64,000 nucleotides of DNA from assembly GCA_964016885.1 (NCBI GenBank), contig OZ024760.1, forward strand, positions 32,488,001 through 32,552,000, read 5' to 3'. The first letter of the stretch is position 1; each line of letters opens with the position of its first letter. This DNA is from Eledone cirrhosa. Its lineage: Eukaryota. The translations under genes were made by a program, and so were the position numbers. This document shows, piece after piece, positions 17,713 to 64,000 of the stretch. Below the pieces are notes generated by a model. That model searched no databases. It had not been told where the DNA came from and was given only the letters and a program-made list of their open reading frames with translations.

Positions 17713-18034
17713 TCATCATCATTTTACGTCCGCTTTTCTCTGCTTGCAAGGGTGGGACGGGAACTGATTCTGGCTTGATTTCTACAGCTGGATGCCCTTC
17801 CTAACACCAACCTCATTTACAGTGAGTGCTGGGTGCTTTTTTGCCGTGACACCTCCACGACCACTTTGCAGTGGAATGATAGGGACCCCAGTCCAATCAT
17901 CTCATTTCTACAGCTGAGTAAACTGGAGCAATGTGAAATAAAGTGTCTTGCTCAAGGAAACAACACATCACCCGGTCTGAGAATTGAACTCACAACCTTT
18001 CGATTGCAAGGCCAATGCTCTAACCACTAAGCCA
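17713..18034 (-). mobile_element. Full-length tRNA-SINE with RTE-derived 3' tail
   Basis: tRNA head (A/B boxes), then RTE-like UTR (gctggatgcccttcctaacaccaacc) and (TGA)n tail; near-identical copy at 46753-47087. Confidence 0.85.
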
Positions 18035-18216
18035 TATATATATATATATATATATACATGTTCTGGATGAGCTGCAAGATAGAGTATATAGAGAGAGAGT
18101 GTATATATGTATACACTCTCTCTATATATATATACACTCTCTCTCTCTATATATATACTCTCTCTCTATATATATATACACTCTCTCTCTCTGTTGCAGC
18201 TCCTACAGAACATGTA

Positions 18217-21200: not shown

Positions 21201-21469
21201 CCCATTGTCATTTCCCACCCAGAAAAGCTTATAGCATCGTTCTTTACCCATGATGAATCTAGCAGACCCTCCCCTCCACCTGGTCTCTTGAATACAACAA
21301 ACATCGACCTCCTTACGTTCAAGCATTTCTACAACCTCGTTAGAGCGACCCTTTAAGGTGCCTACATTCATGGTACCAACTCTGAAGTTTTGGATTGCGT
21401 TTGGAGGGTGGGAGCGGGGGGGATAGCGAAGTTGGGGTTATGTTAGCCATCCGCGGCCGAAACAAGGAG
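18217..21469 (-). mobile_element. Near full-length RTE-clade LINE (APE + RT), frameshifted
   Basis: APE 20106-21371 (NVGTL, IQETRW, YAPQ, GDLNGHVG, VDYIL, SQHRL); RT 19234-20217 (NYRGI, FVDLEKAFD, GVHQGSVLSPLLF, YADD); C-term 18600-19175 (RLRWYGHVMRM, GRPKKTW); (TGA)n tail. Confidence 0.95.
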
Positions 21470-28420: not shown

Positions 28421-28706
28421 ATGTCAGGCAAAAGAGATGGGTTTGACAAAGTACTTATCAAGAATGCAAGGTCACCAACAGTGCATCTGCTGATTTTTAT
28501 ATTATTTATTTTGAGAACAATACCTTAACATCAGTATGAGTGGCTGGTTATGGCCGGTTTGAACAGAAAGAGGTGAGAGAATTCTGGCTGGATGTGGCCA
28601 GTTTAAATGTTAAAGGGTTAAATATTTGTCTTCAGTTACTACTTTGATCTTCTTAAAATACCCCTGTATAGTCTATATCTCTCTCCTGTTTCTGTGTTGT
28701 GTTTAG

Positions 28707-28875
28707 GACATCCCGTATTATAACTGACTACGACCGTCTACAGACATCACAATTGCGCCTCAAAGATGATATTGAGAAGTTAGAGCGAGAAATTGCAATT
28801 CGACAGGGTAAAGAGAAAGAACTCGCTGCTAAAAATCGGTCCCTCTGTTCTTCCATAAAAACTGAAAAGGATGAA
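28707..28875 (+). CDS. SSX2IP: SSX2IP coding exon 3
   Basis: tttAG|..TDYDRLQTSQLRLKDDIEKLERE...KNRSLCSSIKTEKDE|GTAAGT (cf. KNRNLHQLLKNEKDE). Confidence 0.9.
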
Positions 28876-29023
28876 GTAAGTAAAATAAGGGCAACTGTTC
28901 CCTTTTTTCTTTCTCTGTCTCTCTCTCTCTCTATACATCCATCTCTCTCTCTCCCCGTCTCTCTCTATACGCACACACATATCTATATACATCTACATGT
29001 GTCTGTCTGTTCCATGTCTGCAG

Positions 29024-29159
29024 GTGAAGCGCCTCAACTCTACAATAAACCACAAAGAACTCCAGTACCGACACGACTCTAAGAAGAACGAACGAGAGAT
29101 GAATCGGTTGAAGGAGAAACTGAGTCAGGTTCTTATGGAGAAATCACATAAAATACTCG
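29024..29159 (+). CDS. SSX2IP: SSX2IP coding exon 4
   Basis: cAG|VKRLNSTINHKELQYRHDSKKNEREMNRLKEKLSQVLMEK..|GTGAGT (cf. [24 protein letters not shown]). Confidence 0.92.
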
Positions 29160-29362
29160 GTGAGTGTATCCCTGTGTACCTGGTTTACAGTAGGTACACC
29201 ATATCTCTGTGTGTCTACAAAAGGTTGGTGTCAGGAAGGTCGCCTGGTTGTAAAACATTGCCTCAAAATGTCCTGTCCTGATCATGTTAGTATGGAAAAG
29301 TTGACGTAAAATGTTGCTGCTGCTGATGCTGATGCTGATGCTGATTGTTGTTGTTGTTCTAG

Positions 29363-31444: not shown

Positions 31445-31794
31445 GTAAGTAGAAAAAACTTGGAGAAATTCTCTTCCTTTTGTATAAAATAAAGTACCAG
31501 TAACACACTGGGTCGATATAATCGACTTTTAGCTCCCCACAAAAAAAAAATTGTTAACCTTGTGCCTAAATCTGAAACCATTATTAATAGATAAGAGGCA
31601 GCACCTAACCCACCCAGTAAGATGGTAGTGCTGGTGACATGTCAAAAAAGCCCTCAGTCCACCTAGTAAGATGGTAGTGCCTGTGACATGTCAAAAAAGT
31701 CCCCAGTCCACCCAGTAAGATGATTGTGTTGGTGACATGTCAAAAAAGCCCAGTCTATGATGATGATTAACAATTGCTATGTATTCTTTGATAG

Positions 31795-34029: not shown

Positions 34030-34410
34030 TCATCATCATCATCTTGACATTTGTTTTTCCATGCTTGCATGGGTTGGATGGGTCCTTCTTAACACGGTAT
34101 CTCTCCACTTGTATTCCATTGTCATCTCCTCTGCTAGTCTCGGTGATTTGAGGTCAGCTCTCACAACCTCTGCCCAGGTCTTTCTTGGTCTACCTCTACT
34201 GCAGCTTCCATCCATTGAGATTTCCAAGCATTTCTTCACCCAACAATCATCATTCATGCACATCACATGTCTATACCAAGGCAGGCTTCTCCCCTGTACA
34301 CCATCTCTGGTTTCCCTTAAACACAGCTTCTCCCTCAGGTCATTCAAGCTCTGCCTTTCTCTCACATCCAATGAAGTGTGGTAGCTTCATTTCTCTCTAG
34401 TCTACACATC
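34030..34410 (-). mobile_element. RTE LINE 3' fragment
   Basis: WYRHVMCMNDDCWVKKC..GRPRKTW, (TGA)n tail. Confidence 0.85.
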
Positions 34411-38105: not shown

Positions 38106-40382
38106 CTATTGGGGTGATAACCCGTTTAGTTTTGGTTTAAATTTGTTAAGGAATAGATTTTCTTTGTTTATTCTTTGTTGTTGTGTGAACGAATCTGAGC
38201 ACTTGTAGAAGGGGAAGATTTTAAAGTTGGGTAGTGTCATTCCTGCGCAGTTCGCAATATGGCTGCTCAAGGGGATTTTTCTTGTGTTAGCGTCCCGGAT
38301 TTGTTGGCGGTGGATGGTCATTCTTTTGCGTAATGAGGTGCCCGTCTGTCCTATGTAGTTGTGTTTGCACCCACCGCAAGTTATTGCGTAAATCAAGTTC
38401 TCCGAGTTGCAGGTGAAATTGTTTTTTACTGTAAATGTTTGGCCATCTTTGAATGTAAATGTTTGTCCTTCAGTGAGGTAGAGGCACGTTCCACAGTTTG
38501 TTCTACCACATTTGGTAACTGTAGGGTTGAGGATTGGTTTGGGTATATTTGGTCCAGTGAGAATGCGTTTAAGTGATTTGGGTTGTCTTTTACTTTTAAG
38601 GATCTTGTGTGTTTCAAGAATAGACTTCATTTTTACATCTTTAAGTAGGATGGGGAGGTTTTTGTGTAGGTGATCAAACATTTCGGTATTTCTGGGGTTG
38701 AAAGTGGATACATATGGCAGGGTGTTGAGTGTGGTTTTCTGTTTTGGATTGTTAAGTTGATGGGGATTTAGGTGTTTTGCCCTGTCTATTCCATTGTTGA
38801 TTATTTCAAGTGGAAAGGCTCTTAAGATAAGGGTGTCTTTTAGTTCCTTTAGTCTTTGCTCCCGTTTAGGTGGATCTGATACTATGGTACATATACGTTT
38901 GGCCAAATTGTAAGGAATGTTAAGTTTTGTATGTTTTGGGTGACTTGATGTGAAAAAGAGGTATTGCTTGGAATCTGTGGGTTTATAGAATATATCTGTA
39001 TCTAATTTCCCGTCTATTACAGAGATGAGAATATCCAAGAAGGCTAATTCCTTGGGATTGGATTCCATTGTGAATTGTATGTTATTATCTATGTTGTTTA
39101 TCATGTTTTTAAACGTAGTAAGTGAGTTCATGTCTTCTTGCCATAGGATAAAGCAGTCGTCTAGATATCTTTTCCAATTGGCTTTGAGGTGTGTGTGGAA
39201 AGAGTCTCCAAATAAGAGAAGGGACTGACTGTATATTTGTTGTTCATGGAATCCCATGACTAGGTTGGCATATGTGGGTGCTACTTTCGTGCCCATTGCC
39301 GTACCTGATACTTGTCTGTATGTTGAACCATTGAATGTGAAGTAGTTATTTTGTAGGATAAAGCGGAGTCCGTCAGTGATAAAATCTGTGTTGATGCGTG
39401 TCGGTATTTCTGATGGGTGTGTGTTAAGCCAGTATTGGACTGCTGTTATTCCATAGTTGTGAGGTATGTTTGTGTAGAGGTTTATTACGTCAAAGGAGAC
39501 AAGAATTGTATTTGCACTTACTGTTTTAGGGAGGTGTTTCAGCATGTCAAGGTCATCTCGTATGTAGCTCTGTATATGTTGTAGAAAGGGTTTCAGTAGG
39601 ATGTCCAGAAAGTTGCTAAGTCTGTGGGTTTCACATGTAGGGCCTGCTATAATTGGCCTGAGTTTTAGGTCTTCTGGTGGTGTTAGTTCAATGTAATTGT
39701 TGGTTGAGGTGTCACATGCATCGTTTATGGGTTTACATTTGTGAAGTTTCGGTAACCCGTAAAAAGAGCTTGTATTGCATTTGAAGTGGCTTATATAGTT
39801 AAACTCTTTTGTGGTTAAGCTGTTGCGGTATTTATTCAGTAAGGTCAAAAGGTTCCCCATTGTTTTGGTGTGTTTGTAGTTTTCTGTTTTTTCATAGTAT
39901 GTGTTGTTTTCTAAAATGTTAAGTGCGAGGGTCCTATAGTAGTCCGTATTCATAATCACAACAGTACTGCCTTTATCGGCTTCTTTGATAGTTATCTCAG
40001 GGTTGTTTCTAAGTGTGAATAATTCTTCCCATTCGTGTGTAGATAGGTTTGATTTCGTGTGTTTATTTGTAATTTTTTCATAGGGAAAGTTGGTGATGTG
40101 TTCGCAGTACGTGTCCAGTGCTTTATTTCTTCCCTTTTGTGGGCAGAAATTGCTTTTATTTCTAACCAGTGATTCGTCTTCAGTGTTGGTGTCGTTGTGG
40201 AAGAATTCCGTTAGTCGCAGCTTTCGGCAGTATTCCATGATATCATCCTTCATTTCGGGGAAGTTTGGTTTACGTGGTGTAGGTGTAAATTTCAGGCCCT
40301 TACTTAAAATGTTGATTTGTGTGTTGGTTAGAGGTGTCTTTGAGAGGTTGATTATTTTTGGTTTCTCCTGAGGGGGGGCCAT
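38106..40382 (-). CDS. PLE polyprotein: reverse transcriptase + GIY-YIG endonuclease (758 aa, uninterrupted)
   Basis: INLS..LSKGLKFTPTP; FYGLPKLHK; LRPII; FDVINLYTNIP; GTAMGT..AP.YANL; RYLDD; FLDI; CGRTNCGTC linker; LIYAITC..C..NYIGQTG..LRKRM..H. Confidence 0.95.
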   Translation of the reverse strand: MAPPQEKPKIINLSKTPLTNTQINILSKGLKFTPTPRKPNFPEMKDDIMEYCRKLRLTEFFHNDTNTEDESLVRNKSNFCPQKGRNKALDTYCEHITNFPYEKITNKHTKSNLSTHEWEELFTLRNNPEITIKEADKGSTVVIMNTDYYRTLALNILENNTYYEKTENYKHTKTMGNLLTLLNKYRNSLTTKEFNYISHFKCNTSSFYGLPKLHKCKPINDACDTSTNNYIELTPPEDLKLRPIIAGPTCETHRLSNFLDILLKPFLQHIQSYIRDDLDMLKHLPKTVSANTILVSFDVINLYTNIPHNYGITAVQYWLNTHPSEIPTRINTDFITDGLRFILQNNYFTFNGSTYRQVSGTAMGTKVAPTYANLVMGFHEQQIYSQSLLLFGDSFHTHLKANWKRYLDDCFILWQEDMNSLTTFKNMINNIDNNIQFTMESNPKELAFLDILISVIDGKLDTDIFYKPTDSKQYLFFTSSHPKHTKLNIPYNLAKRICTIVSDPPKREQRLKELKDTLILRAFPLEIINNGIDRAKHLNPHQLNNPKQKTTLNTLPYVSTFNPRNTEMFDHLHKNLPILLKDVKMKSILETHKILKSKRQPKSLKRILTGPNIPKPILNPTVTKCGRTNCGTCLYLTEGQTFTFKDGQTFTVKNNFTCNSENLIYAITCGGCKHNYIGQTGTSLRKRMTIHRQQIRDANTRKIPLSSHIANCAGMTLPNFKIFPFYKCSDSFTQQQRINKENLFLNKFKPKLNGLSPQ

Positions 40383-40518
40383 CGAGTATCCTGGTATTTC
40401 AGGCTTTTCCCTAAAAAAGGAATGTAGTTTTGTGTGTGATTATATTTTGTTGGTCTGTTGCGTGTGGGTCTGTGTGTATGTGTGTATGTATATGTATGTG
40501 TGTGTGTATGTATGTGTG

Positions 40519-41752: not shown

Positions 41753-42076
41753 TTATTTTCATAACTTTATAGTTTTTCATCTTTTCTCACACTGTTCCTC
41801 CCCCGACTCCTCAAATATGCTGTCCCTCCCTTCCCCCTGACCCATCTGAGAAGTCAGTAGCCCTGTTTGATGGTGATATTGCTCTCAGCCCATCTGAGAG
41901 GTTTGTAGCCCCACTTGAGTACTCACTTCAGCTGGGTGCCCTACCTATTACAAACCACTTTACAGAGTGGACTTGATGTATTTATTATGTAGATTATGTA
42001 ATTTGGGGAAAAACTAAATTTCCTCAGCCAAATTCTTGAAATTTACTTCCATTATTTCATTTCCTTGTTTCAACAG

Positions 42077-42650
42077 GAACTTGGCATCAGGAGATGCCGG
42101 CCATGTGAGAAAACCCCAGAGGAATTCTTTACTTGATTGTTCAAGTGTCACTTCAGATAACTCCCCATTCAGCCGAGTTGAATCTCAGTCGACATTGAAC
42201 CAGGGTTTGTTAAGAAGATCTGATCCAGTAAGGACCCCACCAAGACACCGCCCGACAAGCCTTTCATCCTCAAACAGTGATTCAAACCACTTGCCATGCA
42301 GCTCTACATCAGCTCCATCAGGGCTCAACTCTGAGCACACTGCTAAAGATAACCCTTCCATAGATATTTTCGAGAGCTTGAACTCTGATAAGGTCCTATC
42401 AACAAAAGTTTTTCGGAACAAGTTTTTACAGCAGCGAAGGCAGTCGGATCCGGTTTGTTCGATGTCCAAAACGGAAGCCAGCAACATGATCACTCCATCC
42501 TTACGCAGTCGTGGAAATCTCTCCAGTAAAACACACTTCATCAGTCTGAACTCTCTAGATGAGTCACTTTGTTTGAAAGATCAACTTGATCCCCAGTTTA
42601 GGCCAGAGAGAAACTCTTTACACAATACTAATGGTCCTTATGACTTTTAA
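42077..42650 (+). CDS. SSX2IP: SSX2IP terminal coding exon 13 (Ser-rich tail)
   Basis: caacAG|g NLASGDAG...NGPYDF*; phase fits; followed by AT-rich UTR with AATAAA at 42931. Confidence 0.8.
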
Positions 42651-46604: not shown

Positions 46605-46752
46605 GTAGGAGGTGAGTTTTATTGTAGCACAATAAAGCAATGCAAATATCGGATAAGTAGCACTCAACAGTTTATTGGACTGGAGGATATATATAGTTCT
46701 TATATATATATATATATATACACACACACATACATACACTCATATATATATA

Positions 46753-47087
46753 TCATCATCATCATTTTACGTCCGCTTTTCCCTGCTTGCAAGGGTGGGA
46801 CGGGAACTGATTCTGGGTTGATTTCTACAGCTGGATGCTCTTCCTAACACCAACCTCATTTACAGTGAGTGCTGGGTGCTTTTTTGCCGTGGCACCTACA
46901 CGACCACTTTGCAGTGGAATGATAGGGACCCCAGTCCCTATCATCTCATTTCTACAGCTGAGTAAACTGGAGCAATGTGAAATAAAGTGTCTTGCTCAAG
47001 GAAACAACACATCACCCGGTCTGAAAATTGAACTCTCAGCCTTTCGATTTCAAGCCCAATGCTCTAACCACTAAGCCATGTGCCTCC
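46753..47087 (-). mobile_element. Full-length tRNA-SINE with RTE-derived tail
   Basis: Near-identical to 17713-18034. Confidence 0.85.
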
Positions 47088-47091
47088 ATAC

Positions 47092-47122
<31 letters not shown>

Positions 47123-47167
47123 TATAAACACACATCAATAGAAATTAGTTTTCAACTACAAAAACAA

Positions 47168-47354
47168 ATAATTGTTTCTACTTTAAGCACAAGGCCAGCA
47201 ATTACCCAGTGCATTAGTGGTACTTTATTTTAGCGACACTGTAAGGATGAAAAGCAAAGTTAACCTCGACGGGATTTGAACTCAGATCGTAAAGAGACGT
47301 AACTATGCTGGAAAGCATGGCGGCCGACCCTCTACCGATACTGCCAATCCACCG
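47168..47354 (-). mobile_element. Nin-like SINE
   Basis: Reverse complement of the 32053 family, including the head. Confidence 0.8.
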
Positions 47355-47687
47355 GTAGGTGAAGAAGTTATATAGCTAAAAAATACGAGATTTATTTACA
47401 ATAAACTGTACATATGGCTACAGACAGTTTTATAGAAATGTAGGAATCCTTTATATATACGTTTCTGTATAGAACAAGAAATATGTTGAAAAATAAAACC
47501 AAACACTGCTAACTATGTCATATTTTAATTTGTTTGATATAATTAGCAGGGTTTAGTTTATATTCAATGTGTGTATATATATAAATATATATAAGACCTG
47601 ACTTACCACAGACACATGCTGGTGCATATATACAGTATGCACCATCCCACCCTCACATGAGGACACCCAAGTATACATCCAGTGAAG

Positions 47688-50600
47688 CCCCCAGTCCACC
47701 CTGTACAGTGGTTGTGTAGGTCTCAGGACACAAAGCACCCAGTCCACACTGTACAGTGGTTGTGTAGGTCTCAGGACACAAAGCACCCAGACCACCCTGT
47801 ATAGTGGTTGTGTAGGTCTCAAGACAGAAAGCACCCAGTCCACCCTGTACAGTGTTGTGTAGGTCTCAAGACAGAAAGCACCCAGTCCACAGTGTACAGT
47901 GGTTGTGTAAATCTCAGGACACAATGCACCAAGTCTACCCTGTACAGTGGTTGTGTAGGTCTCAAGACAGAAAGCACCCAGTCCACCCTGTACAGTGGTT
48001 GTGTAGGTCTCAAAACAGAAATCACCCAGTCCACACTGCACAGTGGTTGTGTAGGTCACAAGTCAGAAAGCACCCAGTCCACCCTGTACAGTGGTTGTGT
48101 AGGTCTCAAGACAGAAAGCACCCAGTCCACCCTGTACAGTGGTTGTGTAGGTCTCAAGACAGAAAGCACCCAGTCAACCCTGTACAGTGGTTGTGTAGGT
48201 CTCAAGACAGAAAGCACCCAGTCCACCCTGTACAGTGGTTGTGTAGGTCTCAAGACAGAAATCACCCAGTCCTCCCTGTACAGTGTTTGTGTAGGTCTCA
48301 AGACAGAAATCACCCAGTTCACACTGTACAGTGGTTGTGTAGGTCTCAAGACAGAAAGCACCCACTCCACCCTGTACAGTGGTTGTGTAGGTCTCAAGAC
48401 AGAAATCACCCAGTCCACAGTGTACAGTGGTTGTGTAGGTCTCAAGTCAGAAAGCACCCAGTCCACCCTGTACAGTGGTTGTGTAGGTCTCAAGACAGAA
48501 AGCACCCAGTCCACCCTGTACAGTGGTTGTGTAGGTCTCAAGACAGAAAGCACCCAGTCCACCCTGTACAGTGGTTGTGTAGGTCTCAAGTCAGAAAGCA
48601 CCCAGTCCACCCTGTACAGTGGTTGTGTAGGTCTCAAGACAGAAATCACCCAGTCCACTCTGTACAGTGGTTGTGTAGGTCTCAAGACAGAAATCACCCA
48701 GTCCACAGTGTACAGTGGTTGTGTAAGTCTCAAGACAGAAAGCACCCAGTTCACCCTGTACAGTGGTTGTGTAGGTCTCAAGACAGAAAGTGCCCAGTCC
48801 ACCCTGTACAGTGGTTGTGTAGGTCTCAAGACAGAAATCACCCAGTCCACCCTGTACAGTGGTTGTGTAGGTCTCAAGACAGAAAGCACCCGGTCCACAC
48901 TGCACAGTGGTTGTGTAGGTCTCAGGACACAAAGCACCCAGACCACCCTGTACAGTGGTTGTGTAGGTCTCAGGACACAAAGCACCCAGTCCACACTGTA
49001 CAGTGGTTGTGTAGGTCTCAGGACACAAAGCACCCAGACCACCCTGTATAGTGGTTGTGTAGGTCTCAAGACAGAAAGCACCCAGTCCACCCTGTACAGT
49101 GGTTGTGTAGGTCTCAAGACAGAAAGCACCCAGTCCACAGTGTACAGTGGTTGTGTAAATCTCAGGACACAATGCACCAAGTCTACCCTGTACAGTGGTT
49201 GTGTAGGTCTCAAGACAGAAAGCACCCAGTCCACCCTGTACAGTGGTTGTGTAGGTCTCAAAACAGAAATCACCCAGTCCACACTGCACAGTGGTTGTGT
49301 AGGTCTCAAGTCAGAAAGCACCCAGTCCACCCTGTAGAGTGGTTGTGTGGGTCTCAAGACAGAAAGCACCCAGTCCACCCTGTACAGTGGTTGTGTAGGT
49401 CTCAAGACAGAAAGCACCCAGTCAACCCTGTACAGTGGTTGTGTAGGTCTCAAGACAGAAAGCACCCAGTCCACCCTGTACAGTGGTTGTGTAGGTCTCA
49501 AGACAGAAATCACCCAGTCCTTCCTGTACAGTGTTTGTGTAGGTCTCAAGACAGAAAGCACCCACTCCACCCTGTACAGTGGTTGTGTAGGTCTCAAGAC
49601 AGAAATCACCCAGTCCACAGTGTACAGTGGTTGTGTAGGTCTCAAGTCAGAAAGCACCCAGTCCACCCTGTACAGTGGTTGTGTAGGTCTCAAGACAGAA
49701 ATCACCCACTCCACCCTGTACAGTGGTTGTGTAGGTCTCAAGACAGAAATCACCCAGTCCACAGTGTACAGTGGTTGTGTAGGTCTCAAGTCAGAAAGCA
49801 CCCAGTCCACCCTGTACAGTGGTTGTGTAGGTCTCAAGACAGAAATCACCCACTCCACCCTGTACAGTGGTTGTGTAGGTCTCAAGACAGAAATCACCCA
49901 GTCCACAGTGTACAGTGGTTGTGTAGGTCTCAAGTCAGAAAGCACCCAGTCCACCCTGTACAGTGGTTGTGTAGGTCTCAAGACAGAAATCACCCAGTCC
50001 ACACTGTACAGTGGTTGTGTAGGTCTCAAGACAGAAAGTACCCAGTCCACAGTGTACAGTGATTGTGTAAATCTCAGGACACAATGCACCAAGTCTACCC
50101 TGTACAGTGGTTGTGTAGGTCTCAAGACAGAAAGCACCCAGTCCACCCTGTACAGTGGTTGTGTAGGTCTCAAAACAGAAATCACCCAGTCCACACTGCA
50201 CAGTGGTTGTGTAGGTCTCAAGTCAGAAAGCACCCAGTCCACCCTGTAGAGTGGTTGTGTAGGTCTCAAGACAGAAAGCACCCAGTCCACCCTGTACAGT
50301 GGTTGTGTAGGTCTCAAGACAGAAAGCACCCAGTCAACCCTGTACAGTGGTTGTGTAGGTCTCAAGACAGAAAGCACCCAGTCCACCCTGTACAGTGGTT
50401 GTGTAGGTCTCAAGACAGAAATCACCCAGTCCTCCCTGTACAGTGTTTGTGTAGGTCTCAAGACAGAAATCACCCAGTTCACACTGTACAGTGGTTGTGT
50501 AGGTCTCAAGACAGAAAGCACCCACTCCACCCTGTACAGTGGTTGTGTAGGTCTCAAGGCAGAAATCACCCAGTCCACAGTGTACAGTGGTTGTGTAGGT

Positions 50601-53600
50601 CTCAAGTCAGAAAGCACCCAGTCCACCCTGTACAGTGGTTGTGTAGGTCTCAAGACAGAAATCACCCAGTCCACACTGTACAGTGGTTGTGGAGGTCTCA
50701 AGACAGAAAGCACCCAGTCCACCCTGTACAGTGGTTGTGTAGGTCTCAAGTCAGAAAGCACCCAGTCCACCCTGTACAGTGGTTGTGTAGGTCTCAAGAC
50801 AGAAATCACCCAGTCCACCCTGTACAGTGGTTGTGTAGGTCTCAAGACAGAAATCACCCAGTCCACAGTGTACAGTGGTTGTGTAAGTCTCAAGACAGAA
50901 AGCACCCAGTCCACCCTGTACAGTGGTTGTGTAGGTCTCAAGACAGAAAGTGCCCAGTCCACCCTGTACAGTGGTTGTGTAGGTCTCAAGACAGAAAGTC
51001 CCCAGTCCACCCTGTACAGTGGTTGTGTAGGTCTCTAGACAGAAAGCATCTAGTCCATCCTGTACAGTGGTTGTGTAGGTCTTAAGACAGAAAGCACACA
51101 GTCCACCCTGTACAGTGGTTGTGTAGGTCTCAAGACAGAAAGCACCCAGTCCACACTGTACAGTGGTTGTGTAGGTCTCAAGACAGAAAGCGCCCAGTCC
51201 ACACTGTACAGTGGTTGTGTAAGTCTCAAGACAGAAAGCACCCAGTCCACCCTGTACAGTGGTTGTGTAGGTCTCAAGACAGAAAGCACCCAGTCCACCC
51301 TGTACAGTGGTTGTGTAGGTCTCAAGACAGAAAGCACCCAGTCCTCCCTGTACAGTGGTTGTGTAGGTCTCAAGACAGAAAGCACCCGGTCCACACTGTA
51401 CAGTGGTTGTGTAGGTCTCAAGACAGAAAGCACCCGGTCCACACTGTACAGTGGTTGTGTAGGTCTCAAGACAGAAACCACCCAGTCCTCCCTGTACAGT
51501 GGTTGTGTAGGTCTCAAGACAGAAAGCACCCAGTCCTCCCTGTACAGTGGTTGTGTAGGTCTCAAGACAGAAAGCACCTGGTCCACACTGTACAGTGGTT
51601 GTGTAGGTCTCAAGACAGAAACCACCCAGTCCACCCTGTACAGTGGTTGTGTAGGTCTCAAGACAGAAAGCACCCAGTCCTCCCTGTACAGTGGTTGTGT
51701 AGGTCTCAAGACAGAAAGCACCCAGTCCACACGGTACAGTGGTTGTGTAGGTCTCAAGACAGAAACCACCCAGTCCTCCCTGTACAGTGGTTGTGTAGGT
51801 CTCAAGACAGAAAGCACCCAGTCCACCCTGTACAGTGGTTGTGTAAATCTCAAGACAGAAAGCACCCAGTCCACCCTGTACAGTGGTTGTGTAGGTCTCA
51901 AGACAGAAAGCACCCAGTCCACCCTGTACAGTGGTTGTGTAGGTCTCAAGACAGAAAGCACCCAGTCCTCCCTGTACAGTAGTTGTGTAGGTCTGAAGAC
52001 AGAAATCACCCAGTCCACCATGTACAGTGGTTGTGTAGGTCTCAAGACAGAAAGCACCCAGTCCACCCTGTACAATGGTTGTGTAGCTCTCAAGACAGAA
52101 AGCACCCAGTCCACCCTGTACAGTGGTTGCGTAGGTCTCAAGACAGAAATCACCCAGTCCACCATGTACAGTGGTTGTGTAGGTCTCAAGACAGAAATCA
52201 CCCAGTCCACCCTGTAGAGTGGTTGTGTAGGTCTCAAGACAGAAAGCAACCAGTCCACCCTGTACAGTGGGTGTGTAGGTTTCAAGACAGAAAGCACCCA
52301 GTCCTCCCTGTACAGTGGTTGTGTAGGTCTCAAGACAGAAAGCACCCAGTCCACCCTGTACAGTGGTTGTGTAGGTCTCAAGACAGAAAGCACCCAGTCC
52401 ACCATGTACAGTGTTTGTGTAGGTCTCAAGACAGAAAGCACCCAGTCCACCCTGTACAGTGTTTGTGTAGGTCTCAAGACAGAAAGCACCCAGTCCTCCC
52501 TGTACAGTGGTTGTGTAGGTCTCAAGACAGAAATCACCCAGTCCACGCTGTACAGTGGTTGTGTAGGTCTCAAGACAGAAAGCACCCAGTCCACCCTGTA
52601 GAGTGGTTGTGTAGGTCTCAAGACAGAAAGCAACCAGTCCACCCTGTACAGTGGGTGTGTAGGTTTCAAGACAGAAAGCACCCAGTCCTCCCTGTACAGT
52701 GGTTGTGTAGGTCTCAAGACAGAAAGCACCCAGTCCACCCTGTACAGTGGTTGTGTAGGTCTCAAGACAGAAAGCACCCAGTCCACCATGTACAGTGTTT
52801 GTGTAGGTCTCAAGACAGAAAGCACCCAGTCCACCCTGTACAGTGGTTGTGTAGGTCTCAAGACAGAAAGCACACAGTCCACACTGTACAGTGGTTGTGT
52901 AGGTCTCAAGACAGAAAGCACCCAGTCCACACTGTACAGTGGTTGTGTAGGTCTCAAGACAGAAAGCACCCAGTCCACCCTGTACAGTGGTTGTGTAGGT
53001 CTCAAGACAGAAAGTCCCCAGTCCACCCTGTACAGTCCCTGTACAGTGGTTGTGTAGGTCTCTAGACAGAAAGCATCTAGTCCATCCTGTACAGTGGTTG
53101 TGTAGGTCTTAAGACAGAAAGCACCCAGTCCACCCTGTACAGTGGTTGTGTAGGTCTCAAGACAGAAAGCACCCAGTCCACACTGTACAGTGGTTGTGTA
53201 GGTCTCAAGACAGAAAGCACCCAGTCCACACTGTACAGTGGTTGTGTAAGTCTCAAGACAGAAAGCACCCAGTCCACCCTGTACAGTGGTTGTGTAGGTC
53301 TCAAGACAGAAAGCACCCAGTCCACCCTGTACAGTGGTTGTGTAGGTCGCAAGACAGAAAGTGCCCAGTCCACCCTGTACAGTGGTTGTGTAGGTCTCAA
53401 GACAGAAATCACCCAGTCCACCCTGTACAGTGGGTGTGTAGGTCTCAAGACAGAAAGCACCCAGTCCACCCTGTACAGTGGTTGTGTAGGTCTCGAGACA
53501 GAAAGAACCCAGTCCACACTGTACAGTGGTTGTGTAAGTCTCAAGACAGAAAGCACCCAGTCCACACTGTACAGTGGTTGTGTAGGTCTCAAGACAGAAA

Positions 53601-56600
53601 TCACCCAGTCCACCCTGTACAGTGGTTGTGTAGGTCTCAAGACAGAAACACCCGGTCCACACTGTACAGTGGTTGTGTAGGTCTCAAGACAGAAAGCACC
53701 CAGTACTCACTGTACAGTGGTTGTGTAGGTCTCAAGACAGAAAGCACCCAGTCCACCCTGTACAGTGGATGTGTAGGTCTCAAGACAGAAAGCACCCAGT
53801 CCACCCTGTACAGTGGTTGTGTAGGTCTCAAGACAGAAAGAACCCAGTCCACACTGTACAGTGGTTGTGTAGGTCTCAAGACAGAAATCACCCAGTCCAC
53901 CCTGTACAGTGGTTGTGTAGGTCTCAAGACAGAAACACCCGGTCCACACTGTACAGTGGTTGTGTAGGTCTCAAGACAGAAAGCACCCAGTACTCACTGT
54001 ACAGTGGTTGTGTAGGTCTCAAGACAGAAAGCACCCAGTCCACCCTGTACAGTGGGTGTGTAGGTCTCAAGACAGAAAGCACCCAGTCCACCCTGTACAG
54101 TGGTTGTGTAGGTCTCAAGACAGAAAGAACCCAGTCCACACTGTACAGTGGTTGTGTAGGTCTCAAGACAGAAATCACCCAGTCCACCCTGTACAGTGGT
54201 TGTGTAGGTCTCAAGACAGAAAGCACCCGGTCCACACTGTACAGTGGTTGTGTAGGTCTCAAGACAGAAAGCACCCAGTACTCACTGTACAGTGGTTGTG
54301 TAGGTCTCAAGACAGAAAGCACCCAGTCCACACTGTACAGTGGTTGTGTAGGTCTCAAGACAGAAAGCAGCCAGTCCACCCTGTACAGTGGTTGTGTAGG
54401 TCTCAAGACAGATATCACCCAGTCCACCATGTACAGTGGTTGTGTAGCTCTCAAGACAGAAAGCACCCAGTCCACCCTGTACAGTGGTTGTGTAGGTCTC
54501 AAGACAGAAAGCAGCCAGTCCACCCTGTACAGTTGTTGTGTAGGTCTGAAGACAGAAAACAGCCAGTCCACCCTGTACAGTGGTTGTGTAGGTCTGAAGA
54601 CAGAAATCACCCAGTCCACCATGTACAGTGGTTGTGTAGGTCTCAAGACAGAAAGCACCCAGTCCACCCTGTACAGTGGTTGTGTAGGTCTCAAGACAGA
54701 AATCACCCAGCCCACCATGTACAGTAGTTGTGTAGGTCTCAAGACAGAAAGCACCCAGTCCACCCTGTACAGTGGTTGTGTAGGTCTCAAGACAGAAATC
54801 ACCCAGTCCACCCTGTACAGTGGTTGTGTAAGTCACAAGACAGAAAGCAACCAGTCCCCCCTGTACAGTGGGTGTGTAGGTGTCAAGACAGAAAGCACCC
54901 AGTCCACAGTGTACAGTGGTTGTGTAGGTCTCAAGACAGAAAGAATCACCCAGTCCTCCCTGTACAGTAGTTGTGTAGGTCTCAAGACAGAAAGAACCCA
55001 GACCACCATGTACAATGGTTGTGTAGGTCTCAAGACAGAAATCACCCATTCCACCCTGTACAGTAGTTGTGTAGGTCTCAATACAGAAATCACCCAGTCC
55101 ACCCTGTACAGTGGTTGTGTAGGTCTCAAGACAGAAAGCACCCAGTCCACCCTGTACAGTGGTTGTGTAGGTCTCAAGACAGAAAGAACCCAGTCCACAC
55201 TGTACAGTGGTTGTGTAGGTCTCAAGACAGAAAGCACCCAGTCCACCCTGTACAGTGGTTGAGTAGGTCTCAAGACAGAAAGCACCCGGTCCACACTGTA
55301 CAGTGGTTGTGTAGGTCTCAAGACAGAAAGCACCCAGTACTCACAGTACAGTGGTTGTGTAGGTCTCAAGACAGAAAGCACCCAGTCCACACTGTACAGT
55401 GGTTGTGTAGGTCTCAAGACAGAAACAGACAGTCCACCCTGTACAGTGGTTGTGTAGGTCTCAAGACAGAAATCACCCAGTCCACCATGTACAGTGGTTG
55501 TGTAGGTCTCAAGACAGAAAGCACCCAGTCCACCCTGTGCAGTGGTTGTGTAGCTCTCAAGACAGAAAGCACCCAGTCCACCCTGTACAGTGGTTGTGTA
55601 GGTCTCAAGACAGAAAGCAGCCAGTCCACGCTGTACAGTGGTTGTGTAGGTCTCAAGACAGAAAACAGCCAGTCCACCCTGTACAGTGGTTGTGTAGGTC
55701 TCAAGACAGAAAGCAGCCAGTCCACGCTGTACAGTGGTTGTGTAGGTCTCAAGACAGAAAACAGCCAGTCCACCCTGTACAGTGGTTGTGTAGGTCTGAA
55801 GACAGAAAGCACCCAGTCCACCCTGTACAGTGGTTGTGTAGCTCTCAAGACAGAAAGCACCCAGTCCACCCTGTACAGTGGTTGTGTAGCTCTCAAGACA
55901 GAAAGCACCCAGTCCACCCTGTACAGTGGTTGTGTAGGTCTCAAGACAGAAAGCAGCCAGTCCACGCTGTACAGTGGTTGTGTAGGTCTCAAGACAGAAA
56001 CCACAAAGTCCACCCTGTACAGTGGTTGTGTAGGTCTCAAGACAGAAAGCACCCAGTCCACCCTGTACAGTGGTTGTGTAGGTCTCAAGACAGAAAACAG
56101 CCAGTCCACCCTGTACAGTGGTTGTGTAGGTCTGAAGACAGAAAGCACCCAGTCCACCCTGTACAGTGGTTGTGTAGCTCTCAAGACAGAAAGCACCCAG
56201 TCCACCCTGTACAGTGGTTGTGTAGCTCTCAAGACAGAAAGCACCCAGTCCACCCTGTACAGTGGTTGTGTAGGTCTCAAGACAGAAAGCAGCCAGTCCA
56301 CGCTGTACAGTGGTTGTGTAGGTCTCAAGACAGAAAACAGCCAGTCCACCCTGTACAGTGGTTGTGTAGGTCTGAAGACAGAAATCACCCAGTCCACCAT
56401 GTACAGTGGTTGTGTAGGTCTCAAGACAGAAAGCACCCAGTCCACACTGTACAGTGGTTGTGTAGGTCTCAAGACAGAAAGCACCCAGTCCACCCTGTAC
56501 AGTGGTTGTGTAGGTCTCAAGACAGAAAGCACCCAGTCCACGCTGTACAGTGGTTGTGTAGGTCTCAAGACAGAAAACAGCCAGTCCACCCTGTACAGTG

Positions 56601-59600
56601 GTTGTGTAGGTCTGAAGACAGAAAGCACCCAGTCCACCCTGTACAGTGGTTGTGTAGCTCTCAAGACAGAAAGCACCCAGTCCACCCTGTACAGTGGTTG
56701 TGTAGGTCTCAAGACAGAAATCACCCAGTCCACCATGTACAGTGGTTGTGTAGGTCTCAAGACAGAAAGCACCCAGTCCACCCTGTACAGTGGTTGTGTA
56801 AGTCTCAAGACAGAAAGCAACCAGTCCCCCCTGTACAGTGGTTGTGTAGGTCTCAAGACAGAAAGCACCCAGTCCACCCTGTACAGTGGTTGTGTAGGTC
56901 TCAAGACAGAAAGAACCCAGTCCACAGTGTACAGTGGTTGTGTAGGTCTCAAGACAGAAAGCACCCAGTCCACCCTGTACAGTGGTTGTGTAGGTCTCAA
57001 GACAGAAAGAACCCAGTCCACAGTGTACAGTGGTTGTGTAGGTCTCAAGACAGAAAGCAACCAGTCCACCCTGTACAGTGGGTGTGTAGGTGTCAAGACA
57101 GAAAGCACCCAGTCCTCCCTGTACAGTGGTTGTGTAGGTCTCAAGACAGAAAATACCCAGTCCACCCTGTACAGTGGTTGTGTAGGTCTCAAGACAGAAA
57201 GCACCCAGTCCACCCTGTACAGTGGCTGTGTAGGTCTCAAGACAGAAAGCACGCAGTCCACCATGTACAGTGTTTGTGTAGGTCTCAAGACAGAAAGCAC
57301 CCATTCCACCCTGTACAGTGGTTGTGTAGGTCTCAAGACAGAAAGCACACAGTCCACACTGTACAGTGGTTGTGTAGGTCTCAAGACAGAAAGCACCCAG
57401 TCCACACTGTACAGTGGTTGTGTAGGTCTCAAGACAGAAATCACCCAGTCCACCCTGTACAGTGGTTGTGTAGGTCTCAAGACAGAAAGCACACAGTCCA
57501 CCCTGTACAATGGTTGTGTAGGTCTCAAGACAGAAAGAACCCAGACCACACTGTACAGTGGTTGTGTAGGTCTCAAGACAGAAAGCAACCAGTCCACCCT
57601 GTACAGTGGGTGTGTAGGTGTCAAGACAGAAAGCACCCAGTCCTCCCTGTACAGTGGTTGTGTAGGTCTCAAGACAGAAAACACCCAGTCCACCCTGTAC
57701 AGTGGTTGTGTAGGTCTCAAGACAGAAAGCACCCAGTCCACCCTGTACAGTGGTTGTGTAGGTCTCAAGACAGAAATCACCCAGTCCACCCTGTACAGTG
57801 GTTGTGTAGGTCTCAAGACAGAAAGCACCCAGTCCACCCTGTACAGTGGTTGTGTAGGTCTCAAGACAGAAAGCACCCGGTCCACACTGTACAGTGGTTG
57901 TGTAGGTCTCAAGACAGAAAGCACCCAGTACTCACTGTACAGTGGTTGTGTAGGTCTCAAGACAGAAAGCACCCAGTCCACACTGTACAGTGGTTGTGTA
58001 GGTCTCAAGACAGAAACAGATAGTCCACCCTGTACAGTGGTTGTGTAGGTCTCAAGACAGAAATCACCCAGTCCACCATGTACAGTGGTTGTGTAGGTCT
58101 CAAGACAGAAAGCACCCAGTCCACCCTGTACAGTGGTTGTGTAGGTCTCAAGACAGAAAGCACCCAGTCCACCCTGTACAGTGGTTGTGTAGGTCTCAAG
58201 ACAGAAAGCAGCCAGTCCACGCTGTACAGTGGTTGTGTAGGTCTCAAGACAGAAAGCAACCAGTCCACCCTGTACAGTGGTTGTGTAGCTCTCAAGACAG
58301 AAAGCACCCAGTCCACCCTGTACAGTGGTTGTCTAGGTCTCAAGACAGAAATCACCCAGTCCACCATGTACGGTGGTTTTGTAGGTCTCAAGACAGAAAT
58401 CACCCAGTCCACCCTGTACAGTGGTTGTGTAGGTCTCAAGACAGAAATCACCCAGTCCACCCTGTACAGTGGTTGTGTAGGTCTGAAGACAGAAATCACC
58501 CAGTCCACCCTGTACAGTGGTTGTGTAAGTCTCAAGACAGAAAGCAACCAGTCCCCCCCTGTACAGTGGGTGTGTAGGTGTCAAGACAGAAAGCACCTAG
58601 TCCACAGTGTACAGTGGTTGTGCAGGTCTCAAGACAGAAAGAATCACCCAGTCCACCCTGTACAGTAGTTGTGTAGGTCTTAAGACAGAAAGTGCCCAGT
58701 CCACCCTGTACAGTGGTTGTGTAGGTCTCAAGACAGAAATCACCCAGTCCACCCTGTACAGTGGTTGTGTAGGTCTCAAGACAGAAAGCACCCAGTCCAC
58801 CCTGTACAGTGGTTGTGTAGGTCTCAAGACAGAAAGAACCCAGTCCACACTGTACAGTGGTTGTGTAGGTCTCAAGACAGAAAGCAACCAGTCCACCGTG
58901 TACAGTGGGTGTGTAGGTGTCAAGACAGAAAGCACCCAGTCCTCCCTGTACAGTGGTTGTGTAGGTCTCAAGACAGAAAACACCCAGTCCACCCTGTACA
59001 GTGGTTGTGTAGGTCTCAAGACAGAAAGCACCCAGTCCACCCTGTACAGTGGCTGTGTAGGTCTCAAGACAGAAAGCACGCAGTCCACCATGTACAGTGT
59101 TTGTGTAGGTCTCAAGACAGAAAGCACCCAGTCCACCCTGTACAGTGGTTGTGTAGGTCTCAAGACAGAAAGCACACAGTGCACACTGTACAGTGGTTGT
59201 GTAGGTCTCAAGACAGAAAGCACCCAGTCCACACTGTACAGTGGTTGTGTAGGTCTGAAGACAGAAAGCACCCAGTCCTACCTGTACAGTGGTTGTGTAG
59301 GTCTCAAGACAGAAAGCACCCAGTCCACCCTGTACAGTGGTTGTGTAGGTCTCAAGACAGAAATCACCCAGTCCACACTGTACAGTGGTTGTGTAGGTCT
59401 CAAGACAGAAAGCACCCAGTCCACCCTGTACAGTGGTTGTGTAGGTCTCAAGACAGAAAGCACCCGGTCCACACTGTATAGTGGTTGTGTAGGTCTCAAG
59501 ACAGAAAGCACCCAGTACTCACTGTACAGTGGTTGTGTAGGTCTCAAGACAGAAAGCACCCAGTCCACCCTGTACAGTGGTTGTGTAGGTCTCAAGACAG

Positions 59601-62600
59601 AAACAGACAGTCCACCCTGTACAGTGGTTGTGTAGGTCTCAAGACAGAAATCACCCAGTCCACCATGTACAGTGTTTGTGTAGGTCTCAAGACAGAAAGC
59701 ACCCAGTCCACCCTGTACAGTGGTTGTGTAGCTCTCAAGACAGAAAGCACCCAGTCCACCCTGTACAGTGGTTGTGTAGGTGTCAAGACAGAAAACAGCC
59801 AGTCCACCCTGTACAGTGGTTGTGTAGGTCTGAAGACAGAAATCACCCAGTCCACCATGTACAGTGGTTGTGTAGGTCTCAAGACAGAAAGCACCCAGTC
59901 CACCCTGTACAGTGGTTGTGTAGCTCTCAAGACAGAAAGCACCCAGTCCACCCTGTACAGTGGTTGTGTAGGTCTCAAGACAGAAAGCACCCAGTCCACC
60001 CTGTACAGTGGTTGTGTAGGTCTGAAGACAGAAAGCACACAGTCCACACTGTACAGTGGTTGTGTAGGTCTCAAGACAGAAAGCACCCAGTCCACACTGT
60101 ACAGTGGTTGTGTAGGTCTGAAGACAGAAAGCACCCAGTCCTCCCTGTACAGTGGTTGTGTAGGTCTCAAGACAGAAAGCACCCAGTCCACCCTGTACAG
60201 TGGTTGTGTAGGTCTCAAGACAGAAATCACCCAGTCCACCCTGTACAGTGGTTGTGTAGGTCTCAAGACAGAAAGCACCCAGTCCACCCTGTACAGTGGT
60301 TGTGTAGGTCTCAAGACAGAAAGCACACAGTCCTCACTGTTCAGTGGTTGTGTAGGTCTCAAGACAGAAAGCACCCAGGCCACCCTGTACAGTGGTTGTG
60401 TAGCTCTCAAGAGAGAAAGCACCCAGTCCACTCTGTACAGTGGTTGTGTAGGTCTCAAGACAGAAATCACCCAGTCCACCATGTACAGTGGTTGTGTAAG
60501 TCTCAAGACAGAAAGCAACCAGTCCCCCCTGTACAGTGGGTGTGTAGGTGTCAAGACAGAAAGCACCCAGTCCACAGTGTACAGTGGTTGTGTAGGTCTC
60601 AAGACAGAAAGAATCACCCAGTCCACCCTGTACAGTAGTTGCGTAGGTATCAAGACAGAAAGTGCCCAGTCCACCCTGTACAGTGGTTGTGTAGGTCTCA
60701 AGACAGAAATCACCCAGTCCACCCTGTACAGTGCTTGTGTAGGTCTCAAGACAGAAAGCACCCAGTCCACCCTGTACAGTGGTTGTGTAGGTCTCAAGAC
60801 AGAAAGAACCCAGACCACACTGTACAGTGGTTGTGTAGGTCTCAAGAGAGAAAGCAACCAGTCCACCCTGTACAGTGGGTGTGTAGGTGTCAAGACAGAA
60901 AGCACCCATTTCTCCCTGTACAGTGGTTGTGTAGGTCTCAAGACAGAAAACACCCAGTCCACCCTGTACAGTGGTTGTGTAGGTCTCAAGACAGAAAGCA
61001 CCCAGTCCACCCTGTACAGTGGCTGTGTTGGTCTCAAGACAGAAAGCACGCAGTCCACCATGTACAGTGTTTGTGTAGGTCTCAAGACAGAAATCACCCA
61101 GTCCACCCTGTACAGTGGTTGTGTAGGTCTCAAGACAGAAAGCACACAGTCCACACTGTACAGTGGTTGTGTAGGTCTCAAGACAGAAAGCACCCAGTCC
61201 ACACTGTACAGTGGTTGTGTAGGTCTCAAGACAGAAAGCACCCAGTCCTCCCTGTACAGTGGTTGTGTAGGTCTCAAGACAGAAAGCACCCAGTCCACCC
61301 TGTACAGTGGTTGTGTAGGTCTCAAGACAGAAAGCACCCAGTCCACCCTGTACAGTGGTTGTGTAGGTCTCAAGACAGAAAGCACCCAGTCCACCCTGTA
61401 CAGTGGTTGTGTAGGTCTCAAGACAGAAAGCACCCGGTCCACACTGTACAGTGATTGTGTAGGTCTCAAGACAGAAAGCATCCGGTACTCACTGTACAGT
61501 GGTTGTGTAGGTCTCAAGACAGAAAGCACCCAGTCCACACTGTACAGTGGTTGTGTAGGTCTCAAGACAGAAATCACCCAGTCCACCATGTACAGTGGTT
61601 GTGTAGGTCCCAAGACAGAAATCACCCAGTCCACCATGTACAGTGGTTCTGTAGGTCTCAAGACAGAAAGCACCCAGTCCACCCTGTACAGTGGTTGTGT
61701 AGCTCTCAAGACAGAAAGCACCCAGTCCACCCTGTACAGTGGTTGTGTAGGTCTCAAGACAGAAAGCACCCAGTCCACCCTGTACAGTGGCTGTGTAGGT
61801 GTCAAGACAGAAAGCACCCAGTCCACACTGTACAGTGTTTGTGTAGGTCTCAAGACAGAAAGCACCCAGTCCACCCTGTACAGTGGTTGTGTAGGTCTCA
61901 AGACAGAAAGCACACAGTCCACACTGTACAGTGGTTGTGTAGGTCTCAAGACAGAAAGCACCCAGTCCACACTGTACAGTGGTTGTGTAGGTCTCAAGAC
62001 AGAAAGCACCCAGTCCTCCCTGTACAGTGGTTGTGTAGGTCTCAAGACAGAAAGCACCCAGTCCACCCTGTACAGTGGTTGTGTAGGTCTCAAGACAGAA
62101 ATCACCCAGTCCACCCTGTACAGTGGTTGTGTAGGTCTCAAGACAGAAAGCACCCAGTCCACCCTGTACAGTGGTTGTGTAGGTCTCAAGACAGAAAGCA
62201 CCCGGTCCACACTGTACAGTGGTTGTGTAGGTCTCAAGACAGAAAGCACCCAGTACTCACTGTACAGTGGTTGTGTAGGTCTCAAGACAGAAAGCACCCA
62301 GTCCACACTGTACAGTGGTTGTGTAGGTCTCAAGACAGAAAGCACGCAGTCCACCATGTACAGTGGTTGTGTAGGTCTCAATACAGAAAGCACCCACTCC
62401 ACCCTGTACAGTGGTTGTGTAGGTATCAAGACAGAAAGTGCCCAGTCCACCCTGTACAGTGGTTGTGTAGGTCTCAAGACAGAAATCACCCAGTCCACCC
62501 TGTACAGTGCTTGTGTAGGTCTCAAGACAGAAAGCACCCAGTCCACCCTGTACAGTGGTTGTGTAGGTCTCAAGACAGAAAGAACCCAGACCACACTGTA

Positions 62601-64000
62601 CAGTGGTTGTGTAGGTCTCAAGAGAGAAAGCAACCAGTCCACCCTGTACAGTGGGTGTGTAGGTGTCAAGACAGAAAGCACCCAGTCCTCCATGTACAGT
62701 GGTTGTGTAGGTCTCAAGACAGAAAGCACCCAGTCCACACTGTACAGTGCTTGTGTAGGTCTCAAGACAGAGAGCACACAGTCCACACTGTACAGTGGTT
62801 GTGTAGGTCTCAAGACAGAAAGCACCCAGTAGTCCCTGTACAGTGGTTGTGTAGGTCTCAAGACAGAAAGCACCCAGTCCACCCTGTACAGTGGTTGTGC
62901 AGGTCTCAAGACAGAAATCACCCAGTCCACCCTGTACAGTGGTTGTGCAGGTCTCAAGTCAGAAAGCACCCAGTCCACCCTGTACAGTGGTTGTGCAGGT
63001 CTCAAGACAGAAAGCACCCGGTCCACACTGAACAGTGGTTGTGTAGGTCTCAAGACAGAAATCACCCAGTCCACCCTGTACAGTGGTTGTGCAGGTCTCA
63101 AGACAGAAAGCACACAGTCCACACTGTACAGTGGTTGTGTAGGTCTCAAGACAGAAAGCACCCAGTCCACACTGTACAGTGGTTGTGTAGGTCTCAAGAC
63201 AGAAAGCACCCAGTCCTCCCTGTACAGTGGTTGTGTAGGTCTCAAGACAGAAAGCACCCAGTCCACCCTGTACAGTGGTTGTGTAGGTCTCAAGACAGAA
63301 AGCACCCAGTCCACCCTGTACAGTGGTTGTGTAGGTCTCAAGACAGAAAGCACCCAGTCCACCCTGTACAGTGGTTGTGTAGGTCTCAAGACAGAAAGCA
63401 CCCGGTCCACACTGTACAGTGATTGTGTAGGTCTCAAGACAGAAAGCATCCGGTACTCACTGTACAGTGGTTGTGTAGGTCTCAAGACAGAAAGCCCCCA
63501 GTCCACACTGTACAGTGGTTGTGTAGGTCTCAAGACAGAAACAGACAGTCCACCCTGTACAGTGGTTGTGTAGGTCTCAAGACAGAAATCACCCAGTCCA
63601 CCCTGTACAGTGGTTGTGTAGGTCTCAAGACAGAAAGCACCCAGTCCACCCTGTACAGTGGTTGTGTAGCTCTCAAGACAGAAAGCACCCAGTCCACCCT
63701 GTACAGTGGTTGTGTAGGTCTCAAGACAGAAAGCACCCAGTCCATCCTGTACAGTGGTTGTGTAGGTCTCAAGACAGAAAGCACCCAGTCCACCCTGTAG
63801 AGTGGCTGTGTAGGTCTCAAGACAGAAAGCACGCAGTCCACCATGTACAGTGTTTGTGTAGGTCTCAAGACAGAAAGCACCCAGTCCACCCTGTACAGTG
63901 GTTGTGTAGGTCTCAAGACAGAAAGCACACAGTGCACACTGTACAGTGGTTGTGTAGGTCTCAAGACAGAAAGCACCCAGTCCACACTGTACAGTGGTTG
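47688..64000. repeat. 48-bp satellite (gtacagtggttgtgtaggtctcaagacagaaagcacccagtccaccct), ~340 copies, runs off the window end
   Basis: Continuous tandem array; the unit is homologous to the RTE 3' UTR dimer. Confidence 0.98.

Follow-up and report, generated by a model that had tools for sequence, protein, structure and literature searches.

What gave rise to the tandem array of 48-bp units at positions 47685–64000 of the window analysed here, a 64,000-nt stretch of the Eledone cirrhosa genome (assembly GCA_964016885.1, contig OZ024760.1, positions 32,488,001–32,552,000 of the forward strand)? An initial annotation of this stretch derived the array from the 3′ untranslated region (UTR) of an RTE-type long interspersed nuclear element (LINE). 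Our analysis leads to a modified reading, to which we assign a probability of about 65%. The array would be a young satellite whose unit is homologous to a module of variable copy number in the tails of RTE-type LINEs and short interspersed nuclear elements (SINEs); it likely grew from such a tail, and the module itself is likely a relocated hairpin of the RTE 5′ UTR.

A homogeneous array grown by block duplication

Tandem Repeats Finder (TRF) returned a period of 48 bp with 339.6 copies and 93% matches. The array, whose plus strand carries the element sense of the unit, is at least 16.3 kb long and runs past the end of the window. Decomposition yielded 339 units, bearing out the roughly 340 copies counted initially; 326 of the 339 are exactly 48 bp long, 144 are distinct, and the modal unit occurs 67 times. 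Indels are present in only 13 units and the mean pairwise difference is 6.7%. In its length, head-to-tail order and homogeneity, the array corresponds to satellite DNA.

No fixed higher-order period was found among lags 1–44. Duplicated segments number 35, compared with 5–8 in each of five shuffles of the unit order, and the longest duplicated block spans 20 units at 99.0% identity; growth of the array is by irregular duplication of multi-unit blocks. The first ~69 units (47685–51000, ~3.3 kb) form a sub-family with private variants and with duplications at offsets of 19, 26 and 45 units.

The unit recurs in LINE and SINE tails

Local alignment of a unit dimer identified seven matching regions elsewhere in the window, in each of which 0 of 1,000 dinucleotide shuffles scored as well. 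Run against the full 47.7 kb that precedes the array, the dimer scored 105, and the best of 100 shuffles reached 46. The monomer is thus significantly homologous to segments of transposable elements.

The first region is the 3′ UTR of a LINE on the minus strand (18214–21460) that encodes an endonuclease and a reverse transcriptase (RT; Pfam PF03372/PF14529 and PF00078). This copy is frameshifted, lacks about 90 amino acids after the RT and has a short or truncated 5′ end. It is collinear with the single 1,094-aa frame of its relative L003, and its single open reading frame (ORF), with an apurinic endonuclease followed by RT, and its (GAT)n microsatellite tail are those of the RTE clade, to which it putatively belongs by this architecture. 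Its extended 3′ UTR contains about three degenerate units plus a half (18510–18354), rather than the diverged dimer first described. These are followed by the conserved second half of the module (GGTTGG...GGAAGGGCATCC...GTAGAAA; 18327–18363), which has counterparts in the 5′ UTRs of L003, L017 and L081, and by an RTE-type 3′ terminal motif with the (GAT)n tail (18214–18272) that is common to the 3′ ends of relatives. The match of 33 of 40 positions between satellite and UTR at 18420–18460, originally seen by eye, was reproduced with one 1-base gap (19 of 40 ungapped; 0 of 1,000 shuffles as good).

Two further regions, both on the minus strand, are tails. At 6641–6889 lies a 5′-truncated copy of the same LINE-family tail (81.6% identity over 255 bp) with about two units and the conserved domain. 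At 12948–13478, some eight units, almost identical to one another in the middle of the run, precede the domain and terminal motif of an RTE-type tail; TRF counts 7.5 copies at 13115–13473. The initial annotation had listed a LINE dimer at ~6795–6890 and ~8 copies attached to an RTE tail at 13070–13475. The tails and copies are there, but tblastn detected no RTE reading frame upstream of either.

The remaining four regions were absent from that annotation or decayed. A SINE at 46750–47090 (minus strand), 600 bp left of the array and in opposite orientation to it, carries 1.5 units in a bipartite RTE-type tail, and a second, 96% identical copy lies at 17708–18035 (minus strand). Both have the layout of bipartite RTE-derived SINEs, namely a tRNA-like head, an RTE 5′-UTR segment and an RTE 3′ end; the 5′ segment matches L003 and L017, and the 3′ end matches L005 and L001. 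The heads are tRNA-like by eye only, and ARAGORN found no tRNA gene in them. On the plus strand, 31610–31765 holds a small array of three 49-bp units (31610–31755) that are 85–92% alike and end in (ATG)n without the conserved domain; this is a third independent small expansion. The seventh region (41914–41995, minus strand) is a decayed fragment of a single module. In five tails the order is the same: last half-unit, conserved domain, family-specific spacer, terminal motif and (GAT)n. Short monomer arrays inside dispersed element copies, a hallmark of satellites derived from transposable elements, are thus present at 13115–13473, 18354–18510 and 31610–31755. The unit is not specific to the LINE at 18.2–21.5 kb, as it is also found in the two SINEs, the 13-kb tail and the 31.6-kb array.

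That the similarity arose by chance, or that the array is an artefact of assembly, we regard as practically excluded. Among the contig pieces listed from public sequencing runs, none crosses the junction of flank and array. The array nevertheless looks like real sequence: its distinct units share variants and block structure, with few indels, and records with window-type letters in run X1 (organism A) cover the flank and the first units. Chance is opposed by the shuffle controls in all seven regions.

Which of these carriers resembles the donor? Compared over the whole unit, the SINEs are closest to the satellite at 77% identity, followed by the 13-kb units at 75%; the LINE family's last units reach 69–71% and the 31.6-kb units 67–71%. 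We consider it unlikely that this LINE family's 3′ UTR supplied the unit and that a truncated LINE copy was the place in which the array expanded. This account can draw on the three units and the 33/40 match in the LINE UTR, on the core of its second-last unit (28/36 identical to the satellite), and on the possibility that a low-copy repeat flanking the array is the UTR of another family. The SINE units, however, are closer (29/36 in the core, 77% overall) than the LINE's last unit (24/36, 69%), and no LINE remnant stands at the visible end of the array.

A tree of 23 rows and 49 columns, including 10 sampled satellite units and rooted on 5′-UTR copies, places the satellite units in one clade (98/97) nested among element units and leaves its sister group open, which likewise gives the LINE no special claim. 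Outside this clade, the 31.6-kb units form a group of their own (100/99), as do two of the 13-kb units (81/76). Because they form separate clades, the 13-kb, 31.6-kb and 47.7-kb arrays appear to be independent expansions and not stages of one lineage. The growth series proposed at first, running from the LINE dimer through the 13-kb copies to the large array, is not supported, as the 13-kb unit is only 75% identical to the satellite. The idea that satellites are seeded repeatedly and independently agrees with the separate clades; its designation of the LINE UTR dimer as the donor lacks support, the SINE units being as close or closer (77% against 69–71%).

A stem kept in elements and broken in the satellite

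The 14 element units have a 6-bp stem in common (stem 1), with 83% of cells paired and two-sided changes in four of the six pairs. Of 500 shuffles, 7 equalled its covariation score; slid controls were 14–66% paired, and RNAalifold, unprompted, recovered the inner four pairs. A second 6-bp stem, located in the conserved domain, is 100% paired in seven modules with no two-sided change. For a possible pseudoknot, in which the hairpin loop would pair with bases that follow the A-run, 92.9% of cells are paired in the seven terminal modules, and one of four pairs shows two-sided change.

One pair of stem 1 is intact in all 14 element units, but only 1 of 314 satellite units (the adjacent 48-bp unit pairs counted among the 339) forms it, and 304 of them read G·A. 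Since the pair is kept in element units and broken in satellite units, the direction from element to satellite, as the initial annotation had it, is well supported. The outgroup 5′-UTR copies described below and the nested position of the satellite clade also point to an element older than the satellite, within the bounds of short sequences and limited sampling. Direction is the usual weak point of claims that a transposon became a satellite; here base-pair polarity and outgroup position give a direction that is independent of copy age.

The reverse course, in which the tails of LINEs and SINEs captured the unit from an old satellite, is already largely refuted and in our estimate very improbable. 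Homogenisation could mask the age of a satellite, and the number of units does vary among tails. Capture would, however, have to accommodate a covarying stem that only the element units keep, satellite units nested within element units, a module that other genomes carry in single copy in RTE 5′ UTRs, and the dominance of element-type letters in organisms B and C. On the preferred reading, the array has most likely lost any RNA function and is neutral; we suggest no host function.

The module in RTE 5′ UTRs

We compared the window with 80 loci encoding LINE relatives, the best 80 of 312. L003, the best RT match (52%), carries the module at 253–330, where its frame opens at 328 and the endonuclease begins at 568. 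L017 carries it at 266–357, ahead of an endonuclease at ~600 (0 of 300 shuffles as good in each). In L081, which was found by motif scan, the domain lies ~215 nt before the endonuclease start and represents mainly the second half of the module. Among the nine loci that reach the endonuclease start and were chosen without bias, the module is present in two, and these are the two closest (43–53% identity, compared with 24–30%). A covariance model run over the 80 loci recovered its two training loci and two weak matches only (E 0.12 and 0.56).

The 3′ ends of the relatives are different. The first microsatellite follows the ORF match by 39–127 nt in 12 of 14 loci, as is typical of the short 3′ UTR of RTEs, whereas the window LINE reaches it 375 nt past its stop. 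Only the terminal motif is common to both. Downstream of the ORF the module was not found in the 14 loci, where scores of 15–26 were within reach of the shuffles (3 and 7 of 200 were the lowest counts). The place of the module in the 3′ UTR of the octopod LINE is therefore likely secondary, a 5′-UTR module having been gained there; of the proposed birth from an RTE LINE 3′ UTR, the homology stands, and the unit corresponds to one half of the relatives' 5′-UTR module. A bipartite SINE-type tail was probably the vehicle, so that the LINE seems to have gained its tail from its own SINEs.

Short SINE-like elements in L083–L089 show the same domain followed by an RTE-type 3′ end, some with heads that are tRNA-like by eye. 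The contigs of L081–L089 come from bins labelled bacteria or archaea and carry RTE-type LINE or SINE sequence; they are likely eukaryotic contamination of those bins. The domain motif had no match in viral contigs, nor the tail motif in metagenome contigs.

The module would apparently be a conserved RNA element beside the RTE start codon that is uncatalogued in Rfam. At gathering score the window had no Rfam match, and with the threshold relaxed to E = 1 the modules of L003 and L017 had none either, so that the module matches no self-cleaving ribozyme or other RNA in Rfam. Upstream of LINE endonuclease frames in three more distant loci we observed twister-P1-like matches (L029:435–489, L049:220–274 and L080:1–53; E 1.6e-5 to 1e-3), which are below the gathering score and lack one stem.

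Satellite and element letters in public runs

Public runs were aligned to the first two units, using contig depth for X1 (organism A), X5 (B) and X6 (C) and raw restriction-site-associated DNA (RAD) reads for X8 (labelled A). Contig depth is no copy number, X1 is possibly the window's own source, and RAD reads represent restriction sites only. At position 47706 the element letter accounts for 39% in X1, 94% in X5, 88% in X6 and 93% in X8, and at 47779 for 59%, 93%, 99% and 97%, respectively. Positions 47722 and 47770 show the same lean for X1 relative to X5, and at 47731 and 47754 the runs are not distinguished. Element-type letters thus dominate the records of three organisms, and the excess of other letters is found mainly in X1. 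This is a weak sign that the satellite is lineage-restricted and that the elements behind it are shared. A very high-copy SINE-like repeat present in all four runs lies at 47166–47354, 330 bp left of the array.

Where and how the array grew

The visible edge of the array bears on whether it grew in place. The 93 bp to its left (47592–47684, plus strand) show no significant LINE, SINE or unit match within the window. Three assignments of this flank were attractive by eye and fell to shuffles: the end of an RTE ORF (444 of 2,000 as good), a degenerate unit (546 of 2,000) and the 13-kb spacer (197 of 2,000). Positions 47602–47660 are covered by a low-copy repeat, found in 13–16 contigs in X1 and 6–8 in X5 that share other letters. 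This repeat, which occurs in contigs of organisms A and B, adjoins the first unit and contains a small inverted repeat.

An array that never had a tail could explain this edge. Early on, the unit would have escaped from its element, for instance through a small circle or by template switching, and given rise to a free satellite family that was inserted here, a scenario that we consider possible rather than probable. It fits a left end without element remnant and the lack of a significant gradient of element-likeness toward that edge (Spearman -0.10, p 0.07). Satellite-type letters in X1 appear to be far above one array's worth, though depth is no copy number, and the units at 31610–31765 were able to travel without the domain. 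What it does not change is the element origin, which it has in common with growth from a tail; only the place of growth differs. Because the array lies in element sense, its tail would stand at the right end, past position 64000.

Growth from a tail, which we favour, might have proceeded in five steps. The module would first have stood just upstream of the ORF, where it is seen in the three relatives from other organisms (in L081 mainly as its second half); the 3′ ends of relatives are short. Non-autonomous elements and SINEs of bipartite structure, joining a 5′ part to the 3′ end, would then have put it beside the 3′ terminus, and an octopod LINE family would have taken up such a tail. Within tails the hairpin half has been duplicated in tandem, to the 1.5, ~2.5, ~3.5 and ~8.5 copies observed. 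Once at least two similar units stood head to tail, slippage or unequal crossing-over could have homogenised and lengthened them, at least three times in the window. The large array itself has lost the conserved stem pair and has grown through multi-unit block duplications.

Several observations weigh against this reading. No part of the 93-bp flank resembles anything in the window beyond chance (197–1,912 of 2,000 shuffles as good), and the array end at which a tail would sit lies outside the window. The hairpin half alone matches the relatives' 5′ UTRs significantly in one of six comparisons (2 of 2,000; the others 65–1,217 of 2,000), and the satellite unit matches L003 no better than 205 of 2,000 shuffles; the link of the satellite to the 5′ UTR is therefore indirect, through octopod tails. 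Only three outgroup 5′ UTRs contain the module, one of them obtained by motif search, and the LINE at 18.2–21.5 kb is missing its own 5′ UTR. As for structure, relatedness of sequences can beat covariation shuffles without any structure, the pseudoknot was not significant in a shuffle control on 14 units (927 of 2,000), and the satellite core still folds, in another pattern, at -7.2 kcal/mol. Low divergence within the array may reflect homogenisation instead of youth.

A broader version can be offered only tentatively, and we would not expect it to hold in full. An RTE 5′-UTR RNA module, probably a pair of H-type pseudoknots before the start codon, may have moved to the 3′ UTR of a coding octopod LINE via its SINE parasites and become a self-duplicating cassette in every new insertion. 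Octopod genomes would then hold lineage-specific satellites, with copies in the thousands, that started from this cassette. The octopod LINEs and SINEs that carry the cassette are abundant, so a single long-read genome could show how array lengths are distributed between 1.5 and hundreds of units and test what lets a few arrays run away.

Relation to known satellites

That satellites grow from arrays inside retroelement UTRs is already known. PisTR-A satellites arose from short tandem arrays inside Ogre long terminal repeat (LTR) retrotransposons (Vondrak et al., PMC7004042), and other cases come from the 3′ UTRs of L1, CR1 and HeT-A (PMC9659126, PMC12628747). As here, Ogre combines a short UTR array at low copy in dispersed elements with an occasional long homogeneous array (PMC7004042, PMC9659126). 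Its unit, in the sections of these sources available to us, is a hypervariable region in an LTR element, whereas the carriers here are a LINE and SINEs of an animal and the unit belongs to a covarying hairpin module. SINE-derived satellites of squamates (Vassetzky et al. 2023, PMC10702118; see also PMC11481361) likewise repeat part of a SINE in few to hundreds of units with many independent origins; according to the portions available, their units measure ~70–290 nt, unlike the 48-nt unit of this mollusc, which is in common with the UTR of a partner LINE. Monomers homologous to the 3′ non-coding part of LINEs, as in our case, are described for the cetacean common satellite (L1), chicken HinfI (CR1) and Drosophila 18HT (HeT-A/TART) (PMC9659126). 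In contrast to these, the segment here is 5′-UTR-like in relatives, and RTE has 0 occurrences in the available text of that source. The present array, with its likely source in a 5′-UTR hairpin, adds a variant to these known cases.

Bipartite RTE-derived SINEs, non-autonomous RTEs and internally deleted LINEs have been described by Kojima 2018 (PMC5786205). The 46.8-kb and 17.7-kb SINEs and L086–L089 have the layout given there (head, RTE 5′-UTR segment, RTE 3′ end and microsatellite). Neither a satellite nor a coding LINE that carries the 5′ segment in its 3′ UTR is shown in the available part of that paper. The window motif was not found in the text of its supplement, as far as available, where a HaSE1/RTE-2_DPl segment resembles it by eye only. 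Nor do the window's elements belong with Ceph-SINEs, which are marked by the Ceph domain: a motif search, made with no alignment, found the window motifs absent from the supplement's Ceph-SINE sequences. Functional RNA structure in RTE 5′ UTRs has precedent in the twister ribozymes of Perere-3 (PMC8501958, from the part available).

For octopods, the accessible portion of PMC9115989 describes the 3′ UTR of RTE-2_OV as mostly microsatellite. In the corresponding portion of the O. vulgaris repeat annotation (PMC13282606) no word begins with 'satellite', and that of PMC4758252 holds nothing further on satellite or module. In the titles and abstract openings of papers returned by full-text searches, we found no RTE-derived cephalopod satellite and no 5′-UTR module in an RTE 3′ UTR. 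The tail family may already be catalogued in Repbase or Dfam.

Setting of the array in the window

The LINE and the 17.7-kb SINE are flanked by a 63-bp minisatellite (21772–23038, 16931–17180 and 18034–18215), and both appear to have inserted into an array of it. A fragment of another RTE-type family at 34030–34365 passes from its ORF directly into the terminal motif, with a short end and no unit or domain. The window also holds a second long array at 23563–28419, comprising 122 copies of a 40-bp unit (95% matches) that has no match elsewhere in the window.

The window contains a gene for afadin- and alpha-actinin-binding protein (ADIP). Its exon at 28714–28902 matches Pfam ADIP and has three matches among 86 candidates, all to this protein (Octopus bimaculoides, 84%; O. 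vulgaris, 81%; Argonauta, 71%). The gene is seen at 28672–29160, with further exon-like frames to ~42650, the last of which (42018–42650) is only putatively part of it. The satellite starts ~5 kb after this last frame. A 777-aa RT frame (38106–40439; weak RVT_1) has repeated flanks at ~37.0–37.2 kb and 40.6–40.8 kb, and a broken relative lies near the window start (644–2544); both are presumably Penelope-like.

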